The notes below the pieces were generated by a model, which saw only the letters and a program-made list of their open reading frames with translations, made no database searches and was not told the origin of the DNA. A program made the translations under genes and the position numbers. DNA of 64,000 bases from a virus (lineage: Duplodnaviria; Caudoviricetes). Location of the stretch: the IMG/VR virus record IMGVR_UViG_3300008259_003073, one strand, 5' to 3'. Position 1 is the first letter of the stretch. Each line of letters begins with the position of its first letter. Positions 2,533-24,649 of this stretch are shown here, in pieces.

Positions 2533-3942
2533 TTAGAGAATCATTCTCGAACCAATCAATATATTACTTAAAAAAGGTGAACCTGCGGCAGTATTACCAC
2601 TCAATTTGTAGTTAATACTGAAACCAAATCTTTTACTGATTTTATAATCAAAGGAACTTCCTAATAAAAATCCTATATTTCTATTTACCGTCGTAGTTTT
2701 ACTTACGGTATTGTACGCTATTGGTGATAACATAGTAAATACTTGAGGTGATATTGTTAATTTTTTACTATATTGATATGGTTTAGTCCAAAACCCAACT
2801 GCTGATGTTGATAAACTATATCCATACTTACCAGTTGCATCTTTAATTAAAAGGTTAATCACCCCCAAATTATAACCAAGCACTCCATATTTTTGAGTTG
2901 GTTTAATATGAGTATATCCTAATAAATTCATATAAGTCCCATTTAAATACGCAAATGCAGATGAATATGAATGTATAGTATTTAACTTGCCTTCTGAAAA
3001 ATCTAATTTAGTATACCCTCCACCTACAATAAATGTTTTCAAATCACTCATAACAACAGCAGTTGCAGAATAACTTTCATCACCTGCCATAGATGCTTTA
3101 GATATACCTACTGTAGCAGATTGTAACCATCTACCATCCGCAGATTCTATTGTAGATAAGTCAGATGCTAATAACATCGGATTGGAAGAAACTGCTTTTT
3201 CTTTTTTCTTCTCTTCTTTTTTCTCTTCTTTAGATTCTTCTTTCTTTTCCTCTGATTTTGATTCTTCTTTCTTTTCTTCAGATTTACTTTCCGATTTACT
3301 TTCTTCTTTTGATTCGGATTTGTTTTCAGAAGATTCGGATTTGCTTTCTGATTTTGTTTCAGATTTGGATTCACTCTTTTGTTCCGATGAAGATGATGAA
3401 CTACCACTCTTATTTTCGGAAGATGAAGATGAACTGCTCGATGAAGATGAACTGCTTCCACCACTATTCGATGATGCGGATGAACTACTTTGAGCAGGAG
3501 GTGGTGTACTACTTCCACTAGATGGTGCAGGTGGTGGTGTTGTAGGTGGTGGAGGTGGAACAACTACGGTAGATGCCGCAGATGAAGCAGCTGAACTTGC
3601 AGCTTGAGATGCTGCAGTACTTGCCGTTTGTGCCACTGCATTTGTAACTGTTTGTTGAACCACTGGAGTATTGATAACAGGACAAGTAAATGCTTCGTAT
3701 GTAGCTTTAGTTGTAAATAACCAAGTTTGAATTACTCCCATTTGTACTTCTAATGGTGTAAAAGTTCTTACTTGATTATAAAATGAAACAGTAGCATTAC
3801 CATTTATTATAGTAGTTGTAGCTAGTTTTGTTTCACCCGTACATCTATCTATAAATGTTTGGGTATAGGTTTGCCCTTCGGCTTTAAATGCCGTTATAAA
3901 TGTAACAATTAATAGTAAAATGGATACTACCCATTTTTTCAT
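2533..3942 (-). CDS. exported protein: N-terminal domain, Ser/Pro/Glu-Lys low-complexity linker, C-terminal putative outer-membrane beta-barrel
   Basis: Signal peptide followed by Q; long S/P/EK-rich linker; C-terminal amphipathic strands similar to 10975..11862. Confidence 0.75.
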   Translation of the reverse strand: MKKWVVSILLLIVTFITAFKAEGQTYTQTFIDRCTGETKLATTTIINGNATVSFYNQVRTFTPLEVQMGVIQTWLFTTKATYEAFTCPVINTPVVQQTVTNAVAQTASTAASQAASSAASSAASTVVVPPPPPTTPPPAPSSGSSTPPPAQSSSSASSNSGGSSSSSSSSSSSSSENKSGSSSSSSEQKSESKSETKSESKSESSENKSESKEESKSESKSEEKKEESKSEEKKEESKEEKKEEKKKEKAVSSNPMLLASDLSTIESADGRWLQSATVGISKASMAGDESYSATAVVMSDLKTFIVGGGYTKLDFSEGKLNTIHSYSSAFAYLNGTYMNLLGYTHIKPTQKYGVLGYNLGVINLLIKDATGKYGYSLSTSAVGFWTKPYQYSKKLTISPQVFTMLSPIAYNTVSKTTTVNRNIGFLLGSSFDYKISKRFGFSINYKLSGNTAAGSPFLSNILIGSRMIL

Positions 3943-4373
3943 TAGTTGTTTTGAATTCTACTTCGAGTGGGTTGATTATTTGTTGGAGTAGTTGTTCTTT
4001 GTTGAATTCTACTCGGTTGTAAATTTTGTTGATTAGGTCTAGTTTCTAATCGTGGTCTATTTGGGTATACATTATCAGTTGATGTTCTACTAGGTCTTTC
4101 TCCAATCGTAGTTTTTCTCTCATATCTTGTGGGTTGATGTGGTTGAACTCTGTTTGGGTAAACATAGTATGGAGGGATTGCTCTATATAAATATAAATTG
4201 CGATAGTTCCATCCCCAATCATTCCAACTCCAATAAGGATTATTACCCCAACCTAACCCAAATGTGTTAGTATTGCAATCACAATCTCTATAAACTACGC
4301 GTTGTTGTGTAGTACAAGATGTTAATAAAATTGTTGCAATTAAAATTAGTACAAATACAACTGCCTTTTTCAT
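3942..4373 (-). CDS. lipoprotein with disordered Arg/Gln/Thr-rich tail
   Basis: Lipobox ILLTS-C; W/Y/G-rich middle; low-complexity C-terminus. Confidence 0.7.
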   Translation of the reverse strand: MKKAVVFVLILIATILLTSCTTQQRVVYRDCDCNTNTFGLGWGNNPYWSWNDWGWNYRNLYLYRAIPPYYVYPNRVQPHQPTRYERKTTIGERPSRTSTDNVYPNRPRLETRPNQQNLQPSRIQQRTTTPTNNQPTRSRIQNN

Positions 4374-4393: not shown

Positions 4394-4401
4394 TATAAAT
4401 A
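4394..4401 (-). promoter_or_regulatory. putative phage late-type promoter motif (coding strand TATTTATA)
   Basis: Directly after terminator, about 20 nt upstream of start 4373; motif recurs upstream of other genes. Confidence 0.5.
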
Positions 4402-4402
4402 T

Positions 4403-4433: not shown

Positions 4434-5419
4434 TTAATTTCCTTTAGATGGGAATCTAGTCCATCCATTACTCCAAATAGGTTTATCTAATTCAGGTATT
4501 ACCACATCTATCTCCTTATTACTTTTTGAAAGTGCTAATGTTTTCAATTGTTCACTTGTCAAAATTGTAGTTGCCTTACTGATAAAGTTTAAGGTAGGAT
4601 TAAATGTTCCTACTGAATTGTTTTCAAATACTGAAACTCCATCTTTTACAAATCCAGCAGTTTCATTACTTTCCAAACTTAAACCACCTTTCATCCATCC
4701 CCATACAATACTATTCTTCATTGTGAATTGAGTTGCTCTCCTAAATCTCAAACCTAAATTGTGGTTTGCTAATGCAGTAGATACATTCGGTCCAATCAAA
4801 ATCATATTGTAAAGTTTTGGATGTGTATACGGTTGTGCAGGTGAACCCGTTCCATCGTTATCACATTCAACACCATTTCCGGCATCACCACTATCTACGA
4901 ATTGTGGGTCTCTTTTTGCCACACCATTTGTGATTGTTCCAGTGTATCCAAAATCAAAATCAAAATCATCATCTGCGGTTGCGAATGCGTATAGATTTCT
5001 TGCAGATACCGTTCCACCAAAGAATTCAAATGCATGGTTTTTGCTCTGCCCAATATAACGATGCCTCCCCAATCACCAGGTGCTCTTTCTCCAACTGCTT
5101 TACCTGATGTAAATACGATTGGTTTTGTTGCAGTTCCTTCTGCTACAATTTGTGCTCCTCTTTCAATTACCAATGCACCCTTCTCACTTATATCGGATAC
5201 GATTGTTGTACCAGGTTGAATAATTAGTTTTGCTCCATCGGTTACATATACATAACCTTTCAATGTCCAAACTTTATCCGCAGTTAAAGTTGTTGTTGTG
5301 TTGATGTTGCCAGTAAGTGTTGTTGAGGTTGGGATGTTGATTGGACCATCTCCTCCACCCAATTCTTTATCGCAACTCATTAATCCGAATGCTAAAATAG
5401 CTACTAATAGTTTTTTCAT
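4434..5419 (-). pseudogene. TBDT-associated beta-helix surface lipoprotein, split by internal deletion/frameshift near 5035
   Basis: 5' part (FGLMS-C...GDWGGIVILGRAKT) and 3' part (AFEFFGGTV...DDDFDFDFGY...DAGNGVECDND) are halves of one family in different frames. Confidence 0.75.
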
Positions 5420-7893
5420 AATGTTAAATTTAGTGTTAATGAAACTGTTTGTTCGTTGTTTGTTTTAATTAAATCTCTGTTTTGTAACTTTTGGTAAAAG
5501 ATTGATGGTTGAGCAAATACATCACCTATTGCCAATTTTAATTCTCCTTTTGGAAGTTTGTGTAAGAATGTAATATCTAATACATCTCTACTATTTTCAA
5601 AGATATCAGGATACCCCTGAAATCCTACTGCCGATATTCTATCTCCAACCCTATTATAGGTTATATTAAGGGTTTCATTCTTTTTGTGTATATTCACCCC
5701 ACCGTTTAACACATAGGTTGACTGTCCTTGTAATTGTCTTTTAACACCATTCACTTCAACTTCGGAATTCATTATCGATGTATTTGCGTATATATCAAAC
5801 CAACCATTTATCTTTTTTCTTGCTTCCAATTCAACACCATATAGGATAGCTGAATTTGGATTGGTGTAAGTTAGGAGGAGGTTGGATGGAACCGAACCAT
5901 CTGCTACAATTTGTTCTATTGGATTGATGAAGTTCTTACCAAATAGGGAAAGTGAAACATTCTCACCTGTATTCGGATACCATTCGTATTTTAAGTCAGC
6001 ATTGTATATATCAGTTTTCTCTAAATTAGAGTTACCCAATAGTTGTGCATTTCTAACAAAATCATAATACGCAAAATTAGCAACTTCTCTGAATTCTGGT
6101 CTTACTAATGTTTTACTTACCGAAAATCTATACTTTGTTTTTTCTTCGTTGTATGAAAGGTTTAAGGATGGTAATATATCCAAATACTCTCTATCTACAT
6201 TTACTTTCTGTCCACTAAAATCTGCAGTTGATACATCGAATAAATTATACTCACCTCTTAATCCTGTGTTTAATTTCCATTTACCGAATTCCGTATCATA
6301 CATTGTGTATAACGAACCCAAATCAAAATCAGCAGTATATCTATCAGTATTGTTTGTTATCTCATCTAACATATCAGTTGATAGGTTACGGAATACTCTA
6401 GCATTAAATCCTCGTATCTTTTTTAGGTAACCACCACCCACTTTAATCTTACCAAACTCTTTGTTGATATTACCATTCAAAGAGTTCTCATCCATCACAC
6501 TCCAAAAACGATATGTATCTCTCCACGCAGTTTGATATGGTTCATCTACCCCCAATGATTTTGTAATTGGATTAACTCTATAATCGGGTTGTTCTCTGAA
6601 AGTGTATGTATATCCTACATTGAAATCTAATGTTTTAACTTTACCATCTAATTGAGAACTGATTACAACATTGTTAATATGATTTGATGCAGTAGATAAA
6701 ACATTCTGCACATTATCAAAGTTATCACCAGTACGAGTTAGGTATGTATCATCGGTTTGGTAGTTCACTAATGTTTTCCAACTATATCTATTCTCACCCA
6801 AATAGGTCAAATTGAATAAACCATTTGTGGAAAACCTTTTTGTGAATAGAACATCTTTGTAATCATAAGCCAGTTCGGTTGATGATTGATAATCCTTTCT
6901 ATCAATGTTATTTATTGTAAATGAGTTCCTTACGGTAGAACTGAATAAGGAGTTCCATTTTCCGTTTACATACCCGAATGATACACCACCATTTAAGTTC
7001 TGAATAGATTGGATTGTTTCAGTTGATGGATTATCAAATAGTTTAGTGTAAGCTCTCTTATCACCATTACCACTAATTCGGTATTTGTATGTAGATGGGA
7101 ATGTGGAGGGGAAATCGGTAGCTTGAACTAACTTAAAATCTCTAAAAGTTGAAACCGAACCCCAACCACTTCCCGATGATATATTAAAAAAGTTATCAGA
7201 TACTTCTTTAGTTGTTATCTGAACCAATCCACCTGCCCAATCACCTGGTAGATTTGCCGATGCTGATTTAGCAACTATTATGTTATCAATTAGTGATGTG
7301 GGGATTATATCAAATGAGAATGCTCTCCTATCGGGTTCGGTTGATGGTAGTGGGGTTTTGTTTAGTAGTGCTGAATTATATCTATCTGCCAATCCTCTTA
7401 CTAATACAAACTTATCGTTTTGTATAGTTACACCACTTACTCTTTTAAGTGCATCACCCACATTTCTATCGGGTGTCTTTTTGATAAATTCTATGGATAA
7501 TCCATCTGATACAACATTACTATTTCGTATTGATTTAACAATAGTTATATCATTTACTTTTTGGGATATTGCCTGTACTGTAACCTCTGTTAATTCTGTA
7601 CTACTTTCTTCAAGTATTATATCAAAGGTTATGTCAGATGTTATATTTAATTCTTTTGTAAAATTCTGATACCCTATGTATGTTGCGGTTATGATGTATG
7701 TACCAGATTTTACATTTAATTTATACTCTGCATTTTCATTTGAGATAGTAGTGTATGTAGTTCCATCGGTGTGTTTGAAACTGATGTGGGAAAAATATAT
7801 ACTTTCCGTTTTGGATTTGGTTATACCACCTATGTTTATTTGTCCAATTGCTAAAGTTGGAATTAGTAGCAAAAATAAGAGAAACGATTTCAT
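5416..7893 (-). CDS. TonB-dependent outer-membrane transporter (carboxypeptidase-regulatory-like N domain, plug, barrel)
   Basis: Signal peptide; GTYIITATYIGY; plug DALKRVSGVTI...VRGLADRYN...FSFDIIP...IDNIIVAKS; barrel GLRGEY, PSLNL, RPEFRE, terminal LTLNLTL. Confidence 0.92.
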   Translation of the reverse strand: MKSFLLFLLLIPTLAIGQINIGGITKSKTESIYFSHISFKHTDGTTYTTISNENAEYKLNVKSGTYIITATYIGYQNFTKELNITSDITFDIILEESSTELTEVTVQAISQKVNDITIVKSIRNSNVVSDGLSIEFIKKTPDRNVGDALKRVSGVTIQNDKFVLVRGLADRYNSALLNKTPLPSTEPDRRAFSFDIIPTSLIDNIIVAKSASANLPGDWAGGLVQITTKEVSDNFFNISSGSGWGSVSTFRDFKLVQATDFPSTFPSTYKYRISGNGDKRAYTKLFDNPSTETIQSIQNLNGGVSFGYVNGKWNSLFSSTVRNSFTINNIDRKDYQSSTELAYDYKDVLFTKRFSTNGLFNLTYLGENRYSWKTLVNYQTDDTYLTRTGDNFDNVQNVLSTASNHINNVVISSQLDGKVKTLDFNVGYTYTFREQPDYRVNPITKSLGVDEPYQTAWRDTYRFWSVMDENSLNGNINKEFGKIKVGGGYLKKIRGFNARVFRNLSTDMLDEITNNTDRYTADFDLGSLYTMYDTEFGKWKLNTGLRGEYNLFDVSTADFSGQKVNVDREYLDILPSLNLSYNEEKTKYRFSVSKTLVRPEFREVANFAYYDFVRNAQLLGNSNLEKTDIYNADLKYEWYPNTGENVSLSLFGKNFINPIEQIVADGSVPSNLLLTYTNPNSAILYGVELEARKKINGWFDIYANTSIMNSEVEVNGVKRQLQGQSTYVLNGGVNIHKKNETLNITYNRVGDRISAVGFQGYPDIFENSRDVLDITFLHKLPKGELKLAIGDVFAQPSIFYQKLQNRDLIKTNNEQTVSLTLNLTL

Positions 7894-7939: not shown

Positions 7940-7973
7940 AAAGTGGTTAAGCAAATGTTAACAAATAATTAAA
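7940..7973 (-). promoter_or_regulatory. Pho-box-like triple direct repeat, 11-bp period
   Basis: Minus strand TTTAATTA-TTT-GTTAACAT-TTG-CTTAACCA, about 50 nt upstream of TBDT start. Confidence 0.6.
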
Positions 7974-8178
7974 TTACTATTCGTTTATCTATATTGTGTT
8001 TTTCGTAAAAGTTATTAAGTGTTTTAATTAAATCAATAATCATATCTTTTGCTTCCTTTTGTGATTTCACATCGGCTCTTGCAAAAGTTGTTTTGGGTAA
8101 AATGGTAGATATTACTTCCCTAGCAGCCCCACCTGTTACTGATACTACTTTTTCATCAATAGGTTTCTTCACTGACAT
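7969..8178 (-). CDS. hypothetical protein (69 aa)
   Basis: ORF track; tightly packed. Confidence 0.65.
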   Translation of the reverse strand: MSVKKPIDEKVVSVTGGAAREVISTILPKTTFARADVKSQKEAKDMIIDLIKTLNNFYEKHNIDKRIVI

Positions 8179-8185
8179 ATAAACA

Positions 8186-8905
8186 TTAATTTGGAAATAT
8201 ACCTTTCTTAATCATTCTATCCAAAATTCTAGCACAAGCAATATCCAATGCCTTTTTAGTTGCAATTGAAATAGTTGATTGGTTGAATTTTACTTCATCA
8301 ACAGTCGCATCAGATAATAGTGTTAATTCTCTCGTTGTAGTTGCCTCACCCAATCCAGATGCTCCAAATACTACACCAGTCTCTGCGTTTGTGAAACGAA
8401 CTTGCAAACCGATACGAGTAACCACCATATTCTTAACACCATCCTTTAAGTTTACGGTCTCATCTTCTGATATTGAATAATCGTAACATTCAATTGTCAC
8501 AAAGTATTCTGCTAAATTGATTTTACCAAACCCATCCAACTGGTTTTCAGAAATACCAGCTTGAGATGCTTGGAATTGTTTAACCATTCGGTTCTTAATT
8601 TCCGTTTTATCTTCGGTAAATTTGAAACGATTGAGGTTTTCCAAGTACTCCATTGAGATGTTTGCTACACCCAAACCTACTCTTTTCTCTTTGAGTTCTG
8701 GATATAGTTCATACATCTCATCACTAATACCTGCTTTTAGAATTTGAATTGGAATTTGACGACCTTCGTAATCTAAAAATTGAGAGATGTCAATGGCAGT
8801 TTCAAATGATGCTTTGTATTGTTCAGTCTTTGTAGTTCCTACGGTTTGAGCTACCACAACACTGCTTAACAAACAAAAACTTAATAATGCGAATAATTTT
8901 TTCAT
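8186..8905 (-). CDS. CsgG/HfaB-like exported protein
   Basis: Signal peptide + Q; GVANISMEYLENLNRFKFTED resembles CsgG 'ml..aL..tgrF.vvER' helix-strand; VRFTNAETGVVFGASG strand. Confidence 0.65.
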   Translation of the reverse strand: MKKLFALLSFCLLSSVVVAQTVGTTKTEQYKASFETAIDISQFLDYEGRQIPIQILKAGISDEMYELYPELKEKRVGLGVANISMEYLENLNRFKFTEDKTEIKNRMVKQFQASQAGISENQLDGFGKINLAEYFVTIECYDYSISEDETVNLKDGVKNMVVTRIGLQVRFTNAETGVVFGASGLGEATTTRELTLLSDATVDEVKFNQSTISIATKKALDIACARILDRMIKKGIFPN

Positions 8906-8920
8906 ACATATGTCTTTTCT

Positions 8921-8928
8921 TATAAATA
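8921..8928 (-). promoter_or_regulatory. putative phage late-type promoter motif (TATTTATA)
   Basis: Between terminator and start 8905, same layout as 4394. Confidence 0.5.
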
Positions 8929-8930
8929 TA

Positions 8931-8960
8931 AAAAAAGGGAGAAACTATAATTTCTCCCTT
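8931..8960 (-). terminator. intrinsic terminator
   Basis: Stem aagggagaaa/tttctccctt, 6-nt loop, T-run on minus strand. Confidence 0.85.
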
Positions 8961-9000
8961 AAAATATATCTGCCCTTCCTACAGTTAAAAGATATATTTG

Positions 9001-9246
9001 TTATCCTTCTTCTTCAGATTTTCCTTTTTTTCCGAAAATCTTACCAGCTTCGGCAATACCGAATGAACCCAATGTAATGATTACGAATGAATTGAAAATA
9101 GTATCACTAATTTCTAGTGTATTTCCCATAATACCAGTTACAATATCTGCACCAGCAAATATCGCCATAACTGCGAATGAACCGAATCCAACGATTGATT
9201 TTTCGTTGTAATCATTGTTGTCTTTGAAAATGTCTTTAAATGCCAT
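9001..9246 (-). CDS. small two-TM membrane protein (holin-like size)
   Basis: Two hydrophobic helices, charged C-terminus. Confidence 0.7.
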   Translation of the reverse strand: MAFKDIFKDNNDYNEKSIVGFGSFAVMAIFAGADIVTGIMGNTLEISDTIFNSFVIITLGSFGIAEAGKIFGKKGKSEEEG

Positions 9247-9283
9247 AGTTTTTAATTTAAATTGTTAATACTATGTAACCCAT

Positions 9284-9895
9284 TTATCCCACCATTTCGG
9301 CGTCTTCGTCTTTAATCTTTCCACACTTCAAACACTCTTCATCCCCATCTCCATCTACATCACCCCAAATGTGTTCACATTGTCTGTGTGCGAAGTATTC
9401 ATCAATCTTACCATCACCATCGAAATCTAAACCATCCATAGTTCCGTCACCATCCTCATCGATTTCAACACCAACTTTAGTTTGTTTTTCTTCAGTTTTA
9501 GGTAGTATTACTACATTTTCTTCAGCATTTTTAAACTCTGTAGTTGGTAACACCAATGGTGCTATAGACATTGGTACTATTGGAGTATTTGGCATATCAG
9601 CAGTATTACTTAATGATGTACCATCTTCCTCATCCATTTTCTGAACTAACATCTTATCCTTATCAGTATCACTAAACCAATAGTCAATGATTTTACCATA
9701 AGAACCAATGAATGCACCTAATAACAATAGAAGAAGTTCTTTCCATTCTCCACTAATTACGGTTTGGCCTAAAATAGCACCAAAGATACCCATAATGATG
9801 ACCATAAAGCCACCCAATACAATAGCAGTGATGAACCATCTGCGTTTCATCATACTAGCTAATAACTCTCTAAATCCACTTGGTTTTTGTTCCAT
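9284..9895 (-). CDS. two-TM membrane protein with C-terminal Dx[DN]xDG Ca-binding motifs
   Basis: TM segments then DEDGDGTMDG, DFDGDGKIDE, DVDGDGDEE and C...CxxC; start taken at MEQK. Confidence 0.7.
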   Translation of the reverse strand: MEQKPSGFRELLASMMKRRWFITAIVLGGFMVIIMGIFGAILGQTVISGEWKELLLLLLGAFIGSYGKIIDYWFSDTDKDKMLVQKMDEEDGTSLSNTADMPNTPIVPMSIAPLVLPTTEFKNAEENVVILPKTEEKQTKVGVEIDEDGDGTMDGLDFDGDGKIDEYFAHRQCEHIWGDVDGDGDEECLKCGKIKDEDAEMVG

Positions 9896-9900
9896 ATTAT

Positions 9901-10218
9901 TTACCATTTAGGGGCTGTTTCTTTGAACTCATCACCTTCTTTTTTCTTAACTGGTTCTGCAGCTGGTTTTTCTACAACTTTTTCTCTTTCGATAATTTTA
10001 GTTGTTCCACCACTGGCTGATTGTTGTTGTTCGTTTGAGTTTGTAATGTTAATTACTGGAGCAGGAGCTGCTGCAGGGGCTGGTTCATCTCCACCACCTG
10101 TTATTTGGGTAATACCCCAAGTACCTAAACCCATAACTGCGGTTGTTAGTACGCCTATAATTGTCTTTTTTAATCCAGACAATGTTCCATCGTTGTGACC
10201 TTCTGTTTCTTCTGACAT
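9901..10218 (-). CDS. single-TM protein with Pro/Ala linker
   Basis: IIGVLTTAVMGLGTWGI helix; PAPAAAPAP. Confidence 0.7.
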   Translation of the reverse strand: MSEETEGHNDGTLSGLKKTIIGVLTTAVMGLGTWGITQITGGGDEPAPAAAPAPVINITNSNEQQQSASGGTTKIIEREKVVEKPAAEPVKKKEGDEFKETAPKW

Positions 10219-10244
10219 CTTATTACTGTTTTTTGTTTATTTAA

Positions 10245-10616
10245 TTATAATTTATTGAAATCTACTATTCCCAATTGATTATTTTTCAAATCAAATAAGC
10301 CAATTCTATATGCAGATGACGGTAATGCGGTGGTGTATACCTTTAAGATATTATCACCTACCTTTACATTCATCGTTTCTTTAGATACTACCCTATTGGA
10401 TATATCAAAAATCTTAATTGTAACTGGTTGTGCAATATCTACTTTAACATTCATTGCAACTTCGGTAGTTACGAATGATGTCTCTAATTTGATGCCAACT
10501 GAATTTTGTATTTTCAGTTCTTCATTAACTTCTGTGATTGGTTGTTCGATTATAGTATCATCAATGCATCCACCCAATCCAAATATTAGTAATACTACTA
10601 TAAGTATTCTTTTCAT
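10245..10616 (-). CDS. lipoprotein with T9SS-CTD/FlgD-like Ig domain
   Basis: Lipobox FGLGG-C; VTIKIFDISNRVV...GDN...ALPSSAYRIGL pattern. Confidence 0.6.
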   Translation of the reverse strand: MKRILIVVLLIFGLGGCIDDTIIEQPITEVNEELKIQNSVGIKLETSFVTTEVAMNVKVDIAQPVTIKIFDISNRVVSKETMNVKVGDNILKVYTTALPSSAYRIGLFDLKNNQLGIVDFNKL

Positions 10617-10617
10617 T

Positions 10618-10971
10618 TTATTTAGTTATTATTAATGTTTTTCCAATTTCGGTTTTCGTAACATCTTCCAATAACAAATATAAATATCGTTTTTCTAATG
10701 AATTCGTATAAATCTTCTTTACATTTTCACCAGAAGTTCCCTTAAATCTTTCTCTACTAATAACTTGTCCACTTTCTTTATCAATTAAAGTTAATGTATA
10801 AGTTCCATCGGACGGTAAATCGAAATGCATATCTTGACCATTAACCACTCTATTCTCTTTCAAACTAAATATTTTTTGAGTAGTAGGTAGTGGGGGTGTA
10901 GGTAATTCAGGTTCGGTACAAGATACCACAACTCCTACACAAACCAACAATATAATTTTTATCCACTTCAT
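10618..10971 (-). CDS. lipoprotein with T9SS-CTD/FlgD-like Ig domain
   Basis: Lipobox VVVS-C; FDLPSDGTYTLTLID..SGQVI...GEN...SLEKRYLYLLL..KTLIITK. Confidence 0.6.
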   Translation of the reverse strand: MKWIKIILLVCVGVVVSCTEPELPTPPLPTTQKIFSLKENRVVNGQDMHFDLPSDGTYTLTLIDKESGQVISRERFKGTSGENVKKIYTNSLEKRYLYLLLEDVTKTEIGKTLIITK

Positions 10972-10974
10972 ATC

Positions 10975-11862
10975 TTAAAATTGAAAGTTCGTTCCTATCA
11001 TAAACATTATTGGATTTGCTTTTTTATATCCTGCGGTTTCTGATAATTTATCCCAAGTTGTGTTGTATCTGATATTGGTATTCAAAACAAATCTTCTCGT
11101 TATTTTCCAATCCATAGATGTACCATAATATAAGTCCAAATTGAAATCATTAAAGTATGCTAAATCGGATGCAGTACCATCTTTGAATACTTTGTATACA
11201 TCACTCATAGCAAACATCTGTGGTGAGATATTAACCACCTTTGTTTTTATTGTATATGTGTACATCACCATACCTTTGTAAGTTATTTGGGAAGATGCGG
11301 GTAGTATTGGATATATGTTTTTCACCCAATTACCATTTTCATCAACAATAAACTTACCTTCCCATTTACCTTCATACTCCCCCCAAAATGATTTACCTGC
11401 GGTTAAACTATATCCAAATGTTCCCCACTTTTTAGTTCTAAACACATCTACTATTGAAAGATTAATATTCTTTTGAAAATCAAAATCGGTTGAATAAAAT
11501 GTTTGTAGAGTAGTTGTTCTGTTTTGAGTATTTCTCGATAAACCATATCCTACACCATAATAGTTCCACGCGGGATTTATAGATGTTGCAAATGAGTGCC
11601 CCCACTGTCCGTTCATTGATGATTTACTATATCCTAAATTTAATGTGGTGGAAATCTGTCTACCAATTATACCAATTGATAGATTTGATGATGAAAGAAC
11701 ATCTTTTGAAAAATCAATATAAGATTGTAGTATACCCACATCATTCCAATCATCACTCTCTCCAAATAATTCTTTGGGTGATAGTTGTAGAGTATCTGGT
11801 GTTTGTGCGTTTGAAACAAAACCTATACAAAGTAAGGATAATATGATTATTACTTTTTTCAT
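10975..11862 (-). CDS. putative outer-membrane beta-barrel protein
   Basis: Signal peptide + Q; amphipathic strands; terminal Phe (GTNFQF). Confidence 0.7.
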   Translation of the reverse strand: MKKVIIILSLLCIGFVSNAQTPDTLQLSPKELFGESDDWNDVGILQSYIDFSKDVLSSSNLSIGIIGRQISTTLNLGYSKSSMNGQWGHSFATSINPAWNYYGVGYGLSRNTQNRTTTLQTFYSTDFDFQKNINLSIVDVFRTKKWGTFGYSLTAGKSFWGEYEGKWEGKFIVDENGNWVKNIYPILPASSQITYKGMVMYTYTIKTKVVNISPQMFAMSDVYKVFKDGTASDLAYFNDFNLDLYYGTSMDWKITRRFVLNTNIRYNTTWDKLSETAGYKKANPIMFMIGTNFQF

Positions 11863-14162
11863 TATTTAATTCTTACTTTTAATTGTTTTCCATCTTTATT
11901 TACCGCATCAGTTGTTGATACTGATGTTAAACCTAATATATTTGTTGTGTTATTTAATAATGTAAAGATAACTCTATATTCAGTTGTATTATCCAACACC
12001 CCATTACCATTTGTTATTAGTGAACCGATGTTTATAAAACTACCTCTGTTGTTTCCATAATTAGTAGGATTACCTTTTGTTGTAAATTCTACCTTTTCAA
12101 ATTTTAATTTAGTGTTATCATAATTTAATTGGAATTGAGTCCCAACTAACTGTTCTTGTAATGGGTCTACTGATAGAGTTGCAATCACGTTATTACCTAC
12201 AACCTCACTCATTATTATCACATTTACTTCATTTGTAATCGTATTACCCATTAAACTCATAGTTCTAACAGAATTACCACTAACACTTTGTAATGCAGAA
12301 TGAGACATATTAACATCACCCTTCCAAAACACATTATAGTTAAAACTATTTAGTAAAGATGTGGTACTTAAATTTATTGGTGAATATACACTATTAGTTG
12401 AATTAGGTTTCGTATTCCAATTTAACTTTGTAATCAAATCATATTCAGATTTTGGTAGTATCTTCATATAATCAGATAAGTTATTAGAACCATTTCCGAT
12501 TATTTCTTCACCCACCAAATGTTGTATTAGTTTGTATGTATCTCTTTCATCAAATATACCATTCCCATCTACATCTGCGTTCATAAACTGAATACCACTA
12601 CTAAACTCCAGTCCATTTTCATTTCCGAACAAACCTCTATTAGATAATTCTTTGAATGCAATGAATACATCTGATACCGTCACAACATTGTTGTATAATG
12701 ATGCTACATTAGTTGTACTTAACTCTACTCCATGTGATTTGTAGTTTTGTGATTGGGTAAATGTAAACTCTGCTTGTAATCCCCAAAAGAAACTTGCTCT
12801 TCTTATGTTAGATGTGAATGATGAACCTGCAAAGTTAAATTCCGTTGGTGTATAAATCCAATAGGCAGCCCAATACATATCCTCCCATTGATATGTTACA
12901 GGTCCATCCCACAAATCAAATAATTTTAAATTAGTAAGACTATTTGGTGAAACACCTACTGGAAATTCTCTCTTATCAATTAGGATTTGGTATCTCTGAT
13001 TTGATGTTTCGTAATCATACACCACACACCATTCAACTTGTCCACCGGATGTAGTTCCTCTAAATCCATTTCCAGCAACCTTTACGGTATCTAAATCAGA
13101 TGTCATATCTACTCTACCCAATCCATTTAGAGTTCTACTTACATTAGTTGTGGGTGAATACTGATTATTACTTTGTGCTAATAACTTTGTGGTAAATTTA
13201 GTTTCATCTATACTCTGACCGAATGTAAAATTAAATTGTGCTCTTAATACATCTCCATTTGAGTGAGTTACACTATTGGTATAGAATTCAGTAAATGTTG
13301 CATCATCGGGATTAGTCCAAGTTCCATATTCAATTACATAAGGGTTATTCCAATTGTTTGATAAATCATTCCAACACGATGCACCATTCCATTTTGCTAC
13401 TGCATAGTTCTCACTACCATTACTACCATTGGGTTCGCCACCACACCAGTTGTTATATACACCTTGAATGTTTCCATTAGTTTGTCCATTTTGGGTTTTC
13501 ATCAATGTCCCCTTTTCAGGTCCAGCATCTATTACCCATCTACCATCTATAACTTCATCCGTTGCTGCGAACCACACATTTGTAGCAGGAACATTTACTC
13601 GGATAAATTCTTCTTCAGATGTAGATGTTATTGTTACTAAATACCCTTGTTGTCCTTTGAATGTTGTTGCCAATGACCTACTTCTCGCGTTTGTGTAAGT
13701 AGTTCTATCTGCAGTAGCAGTTAGTGGTCTATAAAAGTGCCCATTGACTCCATTGTAAAAAAATCCAACTGGGTTGACAGTTGCAGCCACTGATATTTGA
13801 ACATTACCTTTTACTGAACCCGTATTTACTTTTAGGTTTGCTAATGCAATGTTGATATTAGCCATTGTACCAGTTACTACTAAACGAGTCTTATTACCAG
13901 GTAGAGTAAATCCACTTGCAGGTGATAATCCATCCAATCTATCCAAATAAAAAGTAGTACCAGATGGTGGGTTAACTAAACTGATTGATGCAAGTAGAGT
14001 TTCAGTTGCCCCAAATCCGCTTAATACGAACCCACTTGCATCTTGTCCGTTGGTTGATTGAGTAAATGATTTAGGGTCTGGTGCAGAAACGGTTTGAGAA
14101 TACCCCTGGATTTGTACTAATAGTATAAAAATAAGAGCAAAAACAAACCGTTTCATAATCAT
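11862..14162 (-). CDS. exported C-type lectin + dockerin-like + C-terminal cohesin-like protein
   Basis: WCGGEPNG...ENYAV..WNG..CWNDL (CTL); ADVDGNGIFDERD and KGDVN (dockerin-like); GTQFQLNYDNTKLKF (cohesin-like). Confidence 0.75.
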   Translation of the reverse strand: MIMKRFVFALIFILLVQIQGYSQTVSAPDPKSFTQSTNGQDASGFVLSGFGATETLLASISLVNPPSGTTFYLDRLDGLSPASGFTLPGNKTRLVVTGTMANINIALANLKVNTGSVKGNVQISVAATVNPVGFFYNGVNGHFYRPLTATADRTTYTNARSRSLATTFKGQQGYLVTITSTSEEEFIRVNVPATNVWFAATDEVIDGRWVIDAGPEKGTLMKTQNGQTNGNIQGVYNNWCGGEPNGSNGSENYAVAKWNGASCWNDLSNNWNNPYVIEYGTWTNPDDATFTEFYTNSVTHSNGDVLRAQFNFTFGQSIDETKFTTKLLAQSNNQYSPTTNVSRTLNGLGRVDMTSDLDTVKVAGNGFRGTTSGGQVEWCVVYDYETSNQRYQILIDKREFPVGVSPNSLTNLKLFDLWDGPVTYQWEDMYWAAYWIYTPTEFNFAGSSFTSNIRRASFFWGLQAEFTFTQSQNYKSHGVELSTTNVASLYNNVVTVSDVFIAFKELSNRGLFGNENGLEFSSGIQFMNADVDGNGIFDERDTYKLIQHLVGEEIIGNGSNNLSDYMKILPKSEYDLITKLNWNTKPNSTNSVYSPINLSTTSLLNSFNYNVFWKGDVNMSHSALQSVSGNSVRTMSLMGNTITNEVNVIIMSEVVGNNVIATLSVDPLQEQLVGTQFQLNYDNTKLKFEKVEFTTKGNPTNYGNNRGSFINIGSLITNGNGVLDNTTEYRVIFTLLNNTTNILGLTSVSTTDAVNKDGKQLKVRIK

Positions 14163-14163
14163 G

Positions 14164-15813
14164 TTATTCTATTACCAAGTTAATTCTATTTCCACTTGCA
14201 TCAACTGCGTCTGCTAATACAAAGAAGAATAAACCAGTAGTGTTTGTTAACGCAACTTTAGGAGTGAATATTAATTTATATGGAGTACCTTTTTTAATTC
14301 TTGCAGTTTTCAGCTGGTCAATGGAACCAAATGTCAATCTACCACCATCGTTGGTTGAGAAATTGGTTACGGTATTTCCTGCATCAAATATAATGTTATC
14401 CAAATTTAATTTATTATTATCATAATCCATAATAACTTGTAATCCTGCCAATCCTTCTTTTGTTAAATTTGTAGTTAATACAACCTTATTATTTTCCAAA
14501 GTAATTGATACATTTAATTTAGCAGTTTCTAAATCTTCGGTTTTATACGCCATTATAGATGGTACACTCATAGATTTTTTTAAATTCACCTCACCATTAA
14601 TTGAATTTGTGAATTGTCCAGCTGCTATTCTACTTGCAATTACCGATGGGTCAGATGAATGTGACCAGTTTAAATCACCACCCCATGCAAATACCGCGTA
14701 GACCTCTTTGATTGGTGTATCAATAGTTACCTTATACTTTGGAATACCATCTAACCAACTTTGATTTAATAAACCACTAAACCATCTCCAAGATGTTGCA
14801 GTGTTTGTTGGTATAAATGCGTTTGTAGATACATCTTGCCCCATCACATACGCAAATGAGTAATATGAATCTGATTCATTAAATGTATCATCGTTTTTAG
14901 TAATGTTACCCACTTTCTTTTCCAAATTAGAGTATGTAAAGAAGTTTGGAGTTCCACTAATATCAGTTTGTGAATGTCCTAAAAAGGCCTTATATGAATC
15001 AGATACTGTAATTACATTGTTCATCCAAGCTTTTGATGATGCAGGTGATACAAATACACCAACCTCATCCCCAACTTTAACTTGCGTTGTGAAAAGTGCT
15101 TCACCACTCGAATCTAATGGTAATTGTGCAATTGATTGTTGTGAAAAATCAATAGTACCATCCGTTTTCAACTTCATTAACTGAACATAATGGTCTGTAA
15201 TAGTGTATCCTTGTGGGAATAAAACTCTAACTTTAAATTGAGACGTGTTACCCGTTACATTTGTTAATGATAAATTCGTAGCATTACGGGTGATAGGTGC
15301 GATATTTGCAGATGCATCACTAATAGCATACGCCAAATCCAACTTATGAATATCGTTGTAAGTATTTTGGTCTTTTAACACAAACTTTTGAGTTGCTATA
15401 TCACCATTGATTGCAGCATCGGTTCTTTGAACGGTTAATTGTCCAACATTCCAATCTGAATTTACTGCATACCCCCAAGGTGTAGTTTGATATTGTTCAT
15501 ATAAGCTAGTAGCTGCCTTATTTGGAGCTGGAGTGAATTTGTAGTTATCCCATCCAGTATAGAATGTTTGAACTGAATTACCTTGTGAGAATACCGTACT
15601 ATTTGACACCATTGCCAGTGCTTTGTTATTAAACGAATATCTCAACCAAAAATAACGAGGAGTTGTAGTTCCTCTATCTATGGTATATTTTACAGTCAGA
15701 GTATCACCAACTTGATAAGGAGGTGCTGGTGTTACGGATTGTGATACGGTTATTTGACTGAAGGATGCTAGCGATATTAAAAATACCGCTAAAAACAATA
15801 AGAATTTTTTCAT
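14164..15813 (-). CDS. exported dockerin-like/cohesin-like protein, paralog of 11862..14162
   Basis: Signal peptide + Q; NNVITVSD; GGDLNWSHS; C-terminal AGLQVIMDYDNNKLNL cohesin-like. Confidence 0.7.
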   Translation of the reverse strand: MKKFLLFLAVFLISLASFSQITVSQSVTPAPPYQVGDTLTVKYTIDRGTTTPRYFWLRYSFNNKALAMVSNSTVFSQGNSVQTFYTGWDNYKFTPAPNKAATSLYEQYQTTPWGYAVNSDWNVGQLTVQRTDAAINGDIATQKFVLKDQNTYNDIHKLDLAYAISDASANIAPITRNATNLSLTNVTGNTSQFKVRVLFPQGYTITDHYVQLMKLKTDGTIDFSQQSIAQLPLDSSGEALFTTQVKVGDEVGVFVSPASSKAWMNNVITVSDSYKAFLGHSQTDISGTPNFFTYSNLEKKVGNITKNDDTFNESDSYYSFAYVMGQDVSTNAFIPTNTATSWRWFSGLLNQSWLDGIPKYKVTIDTPIKEVYAVFAWGGDLNWSHSSDPSVIASRIAAGQFTNSINGEVNLKKSMSVPSIMAYKTEDLETAKLNVSITLENNKVVLTTNLTKEGLAGLQVIMDYDNNKLNLDNIIFDAGNTVTNFSTNDGGRLTFGSIDQLKTARIKKGTPYKLIFTPKVALTNTTGLFFFVLADAVDASGNRINLVIE

Positions 15814-15814
15814 T

Positions 15815-16468
15815 TTATTTTTCCTCAAATAGATTAGTTATAAGTTTTTCCGAAGCTTTCTTTAAGGCGTTACTTAAAGATGTTTGGTTGAACTTACCAC
15901 CTTCATCTACTATGAGAGTTGACATAGAGATTTCGGATGATGATTCTTCAACCATAACCTCTTTTGCCTTTTTGCCATCCTTATAAAGTGTTCCCTTTAA
16001 TCTGATGACAACTTCTTCTTCATTTTTGTGAAATACGGAGATGTTTTTCTTTGTTGTTAAAACATCTAAATATACAATTTGTACCTGTAACTTATTTGAT
16101 GCCGACTGGGACAACCCCAATCCTCGTTCTTGTAAATACTCTTCTAGTACGTTTTTAACACCAAATTCTAATTGTCTGTTTCCAGCTAATTTTCCAATTT
16201 TTACATTGTTTGTTACTGATTCAACCCAAATATGGTCATCTGCATTATACCATATGTTATTTGGATTATCTTTCCATCCACCATCAAGTTTTATAGTAAG
16301 CCATCTAACAATTGCAGCAGTTGTTTCTGTTTTACCAGTAAACTGCAAATAGACCATATAAACTTGAAAAGAAAATCCCAGTGCTACTATTGAAGCACAC
16401 ATCCACAATACTAGGGATGCTAAATAATTACCTATGGTTGGTAAGGCAACTGTTTTTATATAATTCAT
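15815..16468 (-). CDS. membrane-anchored protein with CsgG-like domain
   Basis: N-terminal TM helix; GVKNVLEEYLQE matches GVANISMEYLEN of 8186..8905. Confidence 0.55.
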   Translation of the reverse strand: MNYIKTVALPTIGNYLASLVLWMCASIVALGFSFQVYMVYLQFTGKTETTAAIVRWLTIKLDGGWKDNPNNIWYNADDHIWVESVTNNVKIGKLAGNRQLEFGVKNVLEEYLQERGLGLSQSASNKLQVQIVYLDVLTTKKNISVFHKNEEEVVIRLKGTLYKDGKKAKEVMVEESSSEISMSTLIVDEGGKFNQTSLSNALKKASEKLITNLFEEK

Positions 16469-16522
16469 AAAGATTATAGTTTTTAATTAAAAACAAAATT
16501 AAATAACCTTTATTGTACTACA

Positions 16523-16530
16523 TATAAATA
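16523..16530 (-). promoter_or_regulatory. putative phage late-type promoter motif (TATTTATA)
   Basis: Intergenic, upstream of the 16468-9001 surface-protein run. Confidence 0.45.
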
Positions 16531-16536
16531 TGAATA

Positions 16537-17370
16537 TTATCCTAATAAGTGATAATATTCTTTAAAATGTTTAATTCTATCTGCTAATCCAATTGTACCA
16601 CCATTTACTCTTTTAGTAATAGATGTTACTACTGCATCAGTTGAACCACCATCGGCTAATTTGTTTAATCCATTTTTGGACCAGAACCATGCAGCTGATA
16701 ATAATGCGTATTTTCCACTTACCACATCAGGATTGGAAGTAATATTTTCTCCAATTGCAGTACCAAATTGAGTATAGTTATCCTTTCCTGTCAATTGGAT
16801 ATATCCTCTACCTCTAAACTTATACCCATCACCACTTGCTTCGGTTCCGTTTGCCATACGATTTGCATATACTTTATTTGCAATTTTTTCTGGTTTTCTT
16901 TCGTAAGGTAACGCAGATTCCAATGTTGGAAAATATTTCTTAAAAATACCATTCAAACCTTTTGCAGAATAGTTTAGATTTTCTTGTGTTGCTCTGAATC
17001 CGCCACTTTCGTGTCCACATTGTGCCAAAAAGTGTGCCAATCTCAATGGAGTATTGATTTGGAATTTAGCCGCAGTATCAGGAATCATTGAGATTACTGC
17101 ATCAGGAATATGTCCTTTTAGTTTTTCCAACTTCAATGGTCCTGAAGATACAATTGGTGCAGATGGTGTATGTGTTGGTGCGTTTCCTCCCATTATTTTT
17201 GCCCAAGTTGCCGGTCCTACAATACCATCGGGTGTTAAACCATTTTTTGCCTGCCATTCTTTTACGGCTGCTTCGGTTTTAGGTCCAAAGTTAGTTACCG
17301 CAGGTGAAATACCTAATTTCTCCTGCATTAATTTTACGTTTTCGTTGTTATCTCCTTTTTTAAGTAGCAT
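16537..17370 (-). CDS. endolysin: peptidoglycan-binding domain + GH19 lysozyme
   Basis: FGPKTEAAVKEWQAKNGLTPDGIVGPATW (PG_binding_1); AHFLAQCGHESGGF, YRGRGYIQLTG equivalent FRGRGYIQLTGKDNY, ITKRVNGG (GH19). Confidence 0.93.
   Translation of the reverse strand: MLLKKGDNNENVKLMQEKLGISPAVTNFGPKTEAAVKEWQAKNGLTPDGIVGPATWAKIMGGNAPTHTPSAPIVSSGPLKLEKLKGHIPDAVISMIPDTAAKFQINTPLRLAHFLAQCGHESGGFRATQENLNYSAKGLNGIFKKYFPTLESALPYERKPEKIANKVYANRMANGTEASGDGYKFRGRGYIQLTGKDNYTQFGTAIGENITSNPDVVSGKYALLSAAWFWSKNGLNKLADGGSTDAVVTSITKRVNGGTIGLADRIKHFKEYYHLLG

Positions 17371-23005: not shown

Positions 23006-24649
<1,644 letters not shown>

Follow-up and report, generated by a model that had tools for sequence, protein, structure and literature searches.

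The 64,000-nucleotide (nt) stretch of phage DNA analyzed here (IMG/VR record IMGVR_UViG_3300008259_003073; hereafter the window) carries a cassette of ten minus-strand genes, g1 to g10, that are tightly packed and overlap by, or are separated by, 1–37 nt (Table 1). An earlier interpretation of the same letters (the sequence-only reading) had proposed that the interval 8186–16530 encodes a phage module for display or secretion at the outer membrane. Ten genes were found at these coordinates, but the cassette in fact continues past 8186 to 2533, which adds a gene for a 143-amino-acid (aa) lipoprotein and a gene that we call d469. As had been proposed, nine consecutive genes (16468 to 9001) each encode a signal peptide, a lipobox or a membrane anchor, and the tenth (8905–8186) follows a terminator. 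The cassette is real, conserved among relatives and specific to phages; the anatomy given in the sequence-only reading is largely correct, and the mechanism that it proposed is plausible.

Table 1. Positions and predicted properties of the cassette genes and other features of the window.
Feature	Position	Strand	Description
g1	15815-16468	-	217 aa; membrane anchor and periplasmic alpha/beta domain, LptE/YajG/CsgG fold class
g2	14164-15828	-	554 aa, exported; beta-rich N-terminal region, degenerate dockerin-like segment, C-terminal cohesin-like domain
g3	11862-14162	-	766 aa, exported modular adhesin (domains by profile and orthologs); N-terminal domain, C-type lectin (~135-285), middle domain, dockerin-like calcium loop (~490-555), cohesin-like domain (~645-766)
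g4	10975-11862	-	295 aa; predicted 12-stranded outer-membrane beta-barrel (autotransporter/FapF/NanC type) preceded by a helix; accessory
g5	10618-10971	-	117 aa; lipoprotein, beta-sandwich resembling the C-terminal domain of type IX secretion cargo
g6	10245-10616	-	123 aa; lipoprotein, beta-sandwich of the same kind
g7	9901-10218	-	105 aa; bitopic inner-membrane protein, Pro/Ala- and charge-rich periplasmic tail (from sequence)
g8	9284-9907	-	207 aa; inner-membrane protein (1-2 helices), acidic DxDGDG-repeat and Cys/His-rich C-terminal region
g9	9001-9246	-	81 aa; two membrane helices, charged C-terminus, holin-like topology
g10	8186-8905	-	239 aa; non-lipidated CsgG-superfamily protein (profile, family, fold); best-conserved cassette gene
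Transporter insertion	4434-7893	-	inside the cassette; TonB-dependent transporter (5416-7893) and broken surface-lipoprotein gene (4434-5419)
143-aa lipoprotein	3942-4373	-	lipobox LTSC; terminator and ATATTTATA motif (4394-4402) precede
d469	2533-3942	-	469 aa; signal peptide, small two-Cys domain, Ser/Pro/Glu/Lys-rich linker of ~170 aa, C-terminal barrel paralogous to g4
ATATTTATA motif	16523-16531	-	candidate promoter element, ~54 nt upstream of g1
ATATTTATA motif, second copy	8921-8929	-	15 nt upstream of g10
Intrinsic terminator	8935-8960	-	between g9 and g10; 11-bp stem, 4-nt loop, T run
Endolysin	16537-17370		PG_binding_1 and GH19 domains; directly upstream of g1
GroEL-type chaperonin	23006-24625		phage gene, full-length (Cpn60_TCP1, E 7e-77)
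DNA polymerase	45232-47793		family B

Scanning IMG/VR with g3 retrieved 81 relatives, and synteny was counted by tblastn in 41 distinct loci that had sufficient flanking DNA. The genes g1, g2, g3, g5, g6, g10 and d469 were present in all 41 loci in a constant, colinear order, so that the co-conservation on which the idea of a single module depends was borne out. In addition, g8 was found in 36 of the loci and g7 in 32, the latter count being higher when open reading frames (ORFs) were searched with blastp. The d469 gene came after g10 in nearly all relatives, usually directly. The nearest record, G001 (71 kb, CheckV 32% complete), was 86% identical over the region. Three pairs of cassette products were related to each other: g2 and g3 (BLASTP E 6e-17 over 331 aa), g4 and d469 (E 4e-7 over 195 aa), and g5 and g6 (E 1e-5).

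Neither megablast of the region nor tblastn of g3 gave a match among 50,697 phage records, and g10 was the sole cassette query that retrieved one of them, phage immuto. When 185,579 species genomes were searched for the g3 family, one match only was obtained, on a 3.4-kb contig of a metagenome-assembled genome (MAG); this near-absence indicates that the module is phage-specific and not a recent capture from a host. The contig (L107; JBIPMA010000251.1), whose g3 homolog is 59% identical, had been assigned to a Schleiferiaceae MAG from Lake Mendota, probably through mis-binning of phage DNA, and gives at best a weak hint at the host of that sub-lineage. Distant CsgG-type relatives of g10 were present in about one tenth of the sampled Bacteroidota genomes and absent from the one Aquirufa genome searched, and g10-like proteins formed 6130 metagenomic clusters. 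None of the ten cassette proteins matched PHROGs, and a scan against NCBIfam gave nothing meaningful for them.

Export signals were assigned with a simple rule-based sequence scan, and the numbers of kept features refer to distinct orthologs. A signal of the signal peptidase I type with Gln at position +1, the Bacteroidetes 'Q-rule' pattern, was kept in every ortholog of g2 (61/61), g3 (49/49) and g4 (34/34), in 49 of 52 orthologs of g10 and in 51 of 52 of d469. The lipobox was kept in 48 of 58 g5 orthologs and 51 of 56 g6 orthologs, and an N-terminal membrane anchor in all orthologs of g1 (41/41) and g8 (51/51). At least one membrane helix was predicted in all 21 orthologs of g9, with two helices in 14 of them. 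The hydrophobic segment of g7 was weaker and rich in Gly and Thr, and passed a strict threshold in 32 of 59 orthologs. The conservation of these signals indicates that the products are unlikely to be parts of the virion, in agreement with the sequence-only reading.

Domain profiles and ortholog comparison identify g3 as a modular adhesin with a constant, dockerin-like/cohesin-like rear half and an exchangeable glycan-binding head. Lectin_C (PF00059) was matched by 24 of 25 g3 orthologs (best E 1e-6), and the g3 profile matched the lectins CEL-I (E 1.6e-5) and Mincle (E 1.2e-4). The calcium- and sugar-site residues E243-P244-N245, E251 and W264-N265-D266 were invariant in 25 orthologs; judged by these EPN, Glu and WND residues, the lectin site is intact, and the C-type lectin that had been proposed was thus confirmed. 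The window protein itself scored 20.9 bits, just under the Pfam cut-off of 22.6, and the L073 ortholog passed with 25.3 bits. In approximately 12 relatives (for example L054, L058, L064 and L066), a PA14 head (E 1.8e-12) replaces the lectin, and in approximately 10 others (for example L040, L047, L062 and L073) an LCCL domain (E 2e-14) is added to it, the rear half of g3 being retained throughout. This pattern of heads looks like domain shuffling at one locus.

The C-termini of g2 and g3 resembled cohesins. Cohesin (PF00963) was matched by the window g3 with E 0.0049 (17.5 bits; cut-off 24.1), by 9 of 25 g3 orthologs and by 10 of 25 g2 orthologs, with E values down to 2.3e-5 (best for g2, 5.2e-5); the g3 variants L040 and L073 scored just above the Pfam cut-off (24.4 and 24.2 bits). 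The g2 protein is a paralog of the C-terminal half of g3. When the g2 profile was compared with the Protein Data Bank (PDB), just weak matches to antibody V domains were obtained (E 0.03 and above). The identification of these C-termini as cohesins is moderately supported by the profile matches. For dockerin (PF00404), g3 residues ~490–555 gave E 0.018 in the window and E 0.0034 in a single ortholog of 25. This segment contains one intact and invariant DxDxNG...D loop, its first repeat has no loop, and the copy in g2 is degenerate. Prediction of a complex with calcium between g3 residues 480–565 and the cohesin-like domains of g2 and g3 gave a median score of 0.26, below the mark of 0.32, in runs without controls, a result that weighs neither way on binding. 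Of the cohesin–dockerin pair that had been proposed, the cohesin part is moderately supported through the orthologs of g2 and g3, but the dockerin identity in g3 is weak. No Por_Secre_tail sorting domain was found in 25 g3 or 25 g2 orthologs.

The orthologs of g10 were 70–97% identical. The window protein alone gave no Pfam match; a family profile built from 41 diverse relatives matched E. coli CsgG (E 5.8e-4, residues 1–193), and Pfam CsgG (PF03783) was matched by 15 of the 41 family members (best E 1.9e-17). An AlphaFold2 (AF2) model of g10 with a predicted local distance difference test (pLDDT) score of 76 was compared with PDB by Foldseek. CsgG was the best match (4uv2/4uv3, E 4e-8, template-modelling (TM) score 0.59), the top 15 matches were all CsgG chains (4uv2, 4uv3, 6l7a/c), and PelC, FlgT and LptE came next; in BFVD, a phage CsgG ranked first. 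By profile and by model, g10 is a CsgG-superfamily protein. The lipobox of CsgG is absent, the signal ending in Ala-Gln in the window protein and in 49 of 52 clade orthologs, and distant relatives retain the lipobox Cys. The segment corresponding to the first CsgG hairpin falls short of its E. coli CsgG counterpart by ~4–6 residues and contains many Glu, Asp and Lys residues, and the second comprises only ~20 residues. CsgF (PF10614) was not found in five related phage records, three of which were 97–100% complete; CsgE and CsgA/B were absent from the Pfam scans of the cassette and were not searched for separately. Because the lipobox has been lost, the hairpins are short and charged and CsgF was not found, a curli-type channel is doubtful, and the outer-membrane secretion pore that the sequence-only reading had envisaged is probably not formed. 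By analogy with the non-pore members of the fold class, a periplasmic ring is more likely for g10 than a curli-type channel.

Two CsgG-like genes had been proposed; g10 is one of them, but g1 can be placed only in the wider LptE/YajG/CsgG fold class, and there only tentatively. The g1 protein matched Pfam Lipoprotein_16 (YajG) below threshold (E 7.8e-5, 22.9 bits; cut-off 25), and an ESM Atlas model of its domain (pLDDT 0.65) resembled LptE (TM 0.57/0.73) and CsgG/LpoB (0.58). Nothing significant was found when the g1 profile was compared with PDB sequences.

The beta-barrel assigned to g4 was supported by its model and by fold searches. The AF2 model (pLDDT 67, predicted TM score 0.65) has ~12 long strands after a helix, and the protein ends in Phe. 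Foldseek retrieved NanC, PcoB, FapF, NalP and EspP from PDB at E 3e-7 to 1e-5, together with the BrkA barrel, and mainly autotransporter domains from the AlphaFold database clusters. No Pfam family, including Autotransporter (PF03797), matched g4, and the g4/d469 barrel profile gave nothing significant against PDB sequences; d469 itself was scanned against NCBIfam only. On this evidence, g4 is modelled as an autotransporter-type 12-stranded barrel, and the C-terminal domain of d469 is assigned to the same type by homology. A relation of g4 and d469 to PorP/SprF (PF11751) was considered and rejected, as hhalign against five Aquirufa PorP/SprF proteins gave a probability of 0.4%.

The small lipoproteins g5 and g6 form one family with similarity to the C-terminal domain (CTD) that directs cargo to the secretion system of type IX (T9SS). 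Among 41 family members, DUF3244 was matched in 18 and Por_Secre_tail (PF18962) in 12, with a best E of 3.4e-4; all of these matches were sub-threshold. The g6 protein also aligned weakly, in register, with the true CTD that ends the cohesin protein of a marine relative (E 0.008), and the g5/g6 profile gave nothing significant against PDB sequences. Unlike a CTD, which sits at the C-terminus of a cargo protein, g5 and g6 are stand-alone lipoproteins without cargo.

As for the remaining membrane proteins, g7 gave a weak DUF7196 match, and its N-terminus was 56% identical to immuto gp016, which lies directly before the immuto homolog of g10. No family match was obtained for g8 in Pfam or NCBIfam. 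In its C-terminal region, a Cys/His cluster comes after three acidic repeats of the DxDGDG type, an arrangement that looks like a calcium or zinc site. Neither g7 nor g9 matched a lysis family in PHROGs or Pfam, and their topology is compatible with that of a spanin or holin.

A smaller core, consisting of a cohesin protein, a g7-like anchor, a CsgG-fold g10, a d469-like protein and a g1-like protein, was found in two other phage lineages. In phage immuto (NC_055915), gp013–gp019 comprise a lectin protein, a 363-aa protein, a cohesin protein, a g7-like protein, a g10 homolog (53% identical), a d469-like protein (a weak tblastn match) and a g1-like protein. There is an overlap between the g7-like gene and the g10 homolog, whose stop codon is where the following gene begins. 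On marine TARA contigs, similarly, the g7-like and g10-like genes abut or overlap, and the gene that follows starts on the stop codon of the latter; the d469 counterpart there was recognized after the g10 homolog by position and size only. On these contigs (L084–L086), a true Por_Secre_tail domain is fused to cohesin, and the lipobox of the g10 homolog is retained. The marine cohesin-CTD protein had no full-length similarity to g2. The TARA contigs also carry an Endonuclease_NS gene inside the cassette. Immuto thus resembles the window in having lectin, cohesin, g7, g10, d469 and g1 types in one block and belongs to a cultured phage–host pair; it differs in that the lectin and the cohesin are on separate, smaller proteins and that no homologs of g4, g5, g6, g8 or g9 were detected. 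The immuto genes are annotated as hypothetical, and we found no study of them.

The window has a GC content of ~32%, and 57 of its 59 ORFs of at least 150 aa are on the minus strand. Its gene content includes a family B DNA polymerase, ribonucleotide reductase, DnaB helicase, glycosyltransferases, the GroEL-type chaperonin and the endolysin. More distant relatives bearing the cassette are contigs of 251–335 kb with a T4-type Gp23 capsid gene, and three of four relative records checked were 97–100% complete by CheckV. From these relatives, the window phage is identified as a T4-like jumbo phage. The sequence-only reading had taken Flavobacterium as the host, which was not borne out. The TonB-dependent transporter unit inserted in the cassette is 62–64% identical to Aquirufa proteins and thus points to the freshwater genus Aquirufa (Cytophagales) as the likely host.

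On balance, we favor the interpretation that the cassette encodes proteins placed by the phage in the envelope of the infected Bacteroidota cell, where they would alter what the cell surface binds. The proteins g1, g7, g8 and g9 would reside in the inner membrane, and g10, like PelC or LptE and not like a curli pore, would form a periplasmic ring beneath the outer membrane. The outer membrane would contain the barrels of g4 and d469, with d469 holding its small domain on a long flexible tether, and g5 and g6 would be lipid-anchored domains resembling the T9SS sorting domain. Together, the inner-membrane proteins, the CsgG-fold protein and the barrels may constitute an envelope scaffold that places or holds g2 and g3 at the surface. 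Acting in cis, the g3 heads could bind glycans of the cell's own surface, resulting in receptor masking and exclusion of further phages; acting in trans, they could bind neighboring cells or particles, leading to aggregation and keeping fresh hosts near the burst. A ligand that differs among host strains would fit the swapping of heads seen in relatives.

A more specific proposal, which we regard as possible but doubtful, is that this clade builds a trans-envelope display apparatus on which exchangeable lectin or PA14 adhesins are mounted via cohesin-type sockets. Its parts would be the inner-membrane anchors, the non-pore CsgG-fold ring, the autotransporter-type barrels and the lipid-anchored, 'split-off' domains resembling T9SS tags. 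If so, the phage would reprogram adhesion between cells or between cells and particles, or mask its own glycan receptor, by means of a virus-encoded surface machine of a previously undescribed kind.

Several results weigh against an envelope display function. The localization of the products relies on simple sequence rules, and the window's own cohesin, dockerin and lectin matches are sub-threshold in Pfam, being raised only by the orthologs. For g2 and g3, which have no recognizable T9SS sorting domain, no other way across the outer membrane was found, and both could stay periplasmic. The composition of the supposed machine is not fixed, because g4 was present in only 20 of the 41 loci and g9 in 14 (by tblastn; the gene is short and divergent). 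The relation between g1 and g10 is weak, since hhalign aligned 20 columns comprising one helix motif, and describing g1 as a second CsgG-like protein is therefore too strong. Finally, in four relatives the TATTTAT motif did not occur within 120 nt ahead of the major capsid gene, which is a weak test because the capsid gene directly follows another gene.

The resemblance of g5 and g6 to the T9SS CTD raises the alternative that the T9SS or gliding apparatus is the target of the cassette, with these lipoproteins as decoys or adaptors. They might jam the translocon and sortase, so that the surface adhesins serving phages of this phylum as receptors are not displayed, or lend a sorting tag to g2 and g3. 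The fusion of a true Por_Secre_tail to the cohesin protein of marine relatives fits such a role, and in Flavobacterium the loss of gliding or of the T9SS leads to phage resistance. The putative host genus has a T9SS, with GldM, at least 10 CTD cargo proteins and five PorP/SprF proteins, and for that reason the alternative stays viable. We nevertheless consider it unlikely: all CTD matches were sub-threshold, a bona fide CTD was not found in five related phage records, the g4 and d469 barrels are unrelated to PorP/SprF, and the swapping of lectin heads, the CsgG-fold protein and the barrels would be left unexplained. A precedent for phage-encoded T9SS cargo is on record (PMC7468147). With the endolysin directly upstream of g1, all or part of the cassette might instead be co-transcribed behind it for lysis or its timing, g9 being a holin with two helices and a charged tail, g7 a bitopic spanin-like protein with a periplasmic tail acting with the lipoproteins g5 and g6, and g8 a regulator; the CsgG-type genes of phage Melnitz have been proposed to act in lysis (PMC9004378). 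However, the endolysin was adjacent to the cassette in only 8 of the 41 loci and is ~8 kb off in immuto, none of the ten proteins matched a PHROG lysis family, and the folded beta-sandwiches of g5 and g6 (~100 aa) do not resemble o-spanins, which are short and Pro-rich. Lectin and cohesin proteins of 550–770 aa, barrels and a CsgG-fold protein are also not needed for lysis. A lysis role may apply to g9 and g7 but cannot explain the whole set, and as an account of the cassette it is decidedly unlikely.

Bacteroidota feed by binding glycans at their surface. The surface lectins could accordingly gather glycans or glycan-coated particles for uptake, for example via the TonB-dependent transporter that is inserted with a surface lipoprotein between g10 and d469, and so fuel the long infection of a jumbo phage. 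The glycan-binding heads are compatible with this, but the transporter was present in only one of the 41 loci, the partner lipoprotein gene is broken in the window, and the core has no glycoside hydrolase, all of which make nutrient capture very unlikely. Swappable glycan-binding heads on a constant stalk are also typical of receptor-binding proteins, and g2 and g3 might be such proteins of the virion, with the other products as assembly factors. This was rejected on the cleavable signal peptides, which are conserved in all g2 and g3 orthologs, as tailed virions assemble in the cytoplasm. Furthermore, there was no PHROG structural match, the neighboring genes encode lipoproteins, barrels and membrane proteins, and the capsid gene of relatives is far away from the cassette; a virion role for g2 and g3 is thus extremely unlikely.

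We found no paper describing the cassette, in accord with the suggestion of the sequence-only reading that the whole architecture is undescribed; a 2025 paper on large aquatic Bacteroidota phages ('moraphages', not linked to this clade here) does not mention the cassette genes. Parts of the architecture have counterparts in known systems. Curli-like CsgG/CsgF genes occur in pelagimyophages (the HTVC008M group) and in the Methylophilales phage Melnitz, for which capture of sibling cells, uptake and lysis control have been considered as speculative roles (PMC7029224, PMC9004378). As with g10, these are CsgG-superfamily proteins encoded by phages without curli subunit genes. Theirs is a lipoprotein-type CsgG with a modelled barrel and CsgF, whereas g10 is non-lipidated with short, charged hairpins and, in Bacteroidota phages, lies in a block of 10–13 genes with lectin/cohesin adhesins, barrels and lipoproteins. 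'Cryophage' is likewise a Bacteroidota phage; its T9SS cargo, destined for the host surface, consists of variable proteins related to glycans, among them a PA14 protein (Bellas et al. 2020, PMC7468147). This cargo is encoded by single genes in flexible islands and carries a true type A sorting domain, in contrast to g2 and g3, which have no such domain and accompany a conserved envelope set.

PelC and LptE are lipoproteins of the CsgG/LptE fold class that form a ring or plug under or inside an outer-membrane barrel. The proximity of g10 and g1 to d469 and g4 recalls the PelC–PelB and LptE–LptD pairs, the association here being drawn from gene order. The cassette barrels are, however, small, 12-stranded and of the autotransporter type, g10 has no lipid anchor, and there is no polysaccharide or lipopolysaccharide pathway. 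Cohesin-like modules and a dockerin-like segment with a calcium loop on secreted multi-domain proteins are reminiscent of the cellulosome; in the cassette, the matches are weak, both modules are on one polypeptide, there are no enzymes and the context is that of a Gram-negative phage. The d469 protein is laid out like a type Va autotransporter, with a signal peptide in front and a linker between its N-terminal domain and a 12-stranded barrel at the C-terminus, but its passenger would be tiny and its linker is long and of low complexity, the g4 barrel has no passenger, and g4 did not match the Pfam Autotransporter family.

The cassette occupies ~3–5% of genomes of 250–335 kb and is colinear across dozens of divergent lake phages; given this share, this colinearity and the thousands of metagenomic g10 members, selection for it must be strong. 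If the surface of the infected cell is indeed remodelled, the cassette bears on how large phages avert superinfection or the loss of progeny on debris, and on the attachment or aggregation of cells after infection and hence on carbon flow in freshwater. It would also show how parts for secretion and anchoring (the CsgG fold, autotransporter barrels, T9SS-like tags and cohesins) are recombined. The reduced version in the cultured pair of Flavobacterium sp. LMO8 and phage immuto makes the role testable.

The terminator that had been noted between g9 and g10 is real (8960–8935) and is conserved upstream of g10 in several relatives. For the promoter-like motif noted at 16523, the outcome was mixed: ATATTTATA is present and always on the coding strand, but its frequency is not above chance and a promoter role is only a candidate one. 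Eight copies were found in the window (2509, 4186, 4394, 8921, 10679, 16523, 29083 and 29907), against 4.8 expected. Four of the eight fall in the rare intergenic spacers, where they precede g1, g10, the gene of the 143-aa lipoprotein and a gene of 79 aa by 15–54 nt. In relatives, ATATTTATA or near variants were found upstream of g1, g6 and g10, and the succession of hairpin and motif upstream of g10 was conserved in several of them. Within the window, the motif lies directly behind a GGGAG...CTCCC hairpin with a T run in two instances. The copy in the 3' end of g5, upstream of g6, was kept in 39 of 56 relatives. A scan for sigma-70 promoters gave 53 sites, versus 81 in shuffled sequence, and the Bacteroidota TTTG...TAnnTTTG pattern occurred at chance level.

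The inserted transporter, which has Plug, OMP_b-brl_3 and CarbopepD_reg domains, looks host-derived and outside the conserved core. Its partner lipoprotein gene is ~67 residues short and changes frame relative to the orthologs in L045 and L062, which are intact and 400 aa long. Between g10 and the transporter is a gene of 69 aa (7969–8178) without an export signal, which was found in the nearest relatives only.

DNA nearly identical to that of the window was present in 18 freshwater or lake runs from 11 studies. Two estuary metatranscriptome runs of one study contained short contigs 90–99% alike over parts of g1, g2, g3, g8/g9, g10, the transporter and the lysin; these are from relatives and may reflect DNA carry-over, and they were not counted as evidence of expression. 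When the DNA polymerase was compared with cultured phages, Microcystis phage Mel-JY01 ranked first (49% identical), followed by T4-like cyanophages (~33%).

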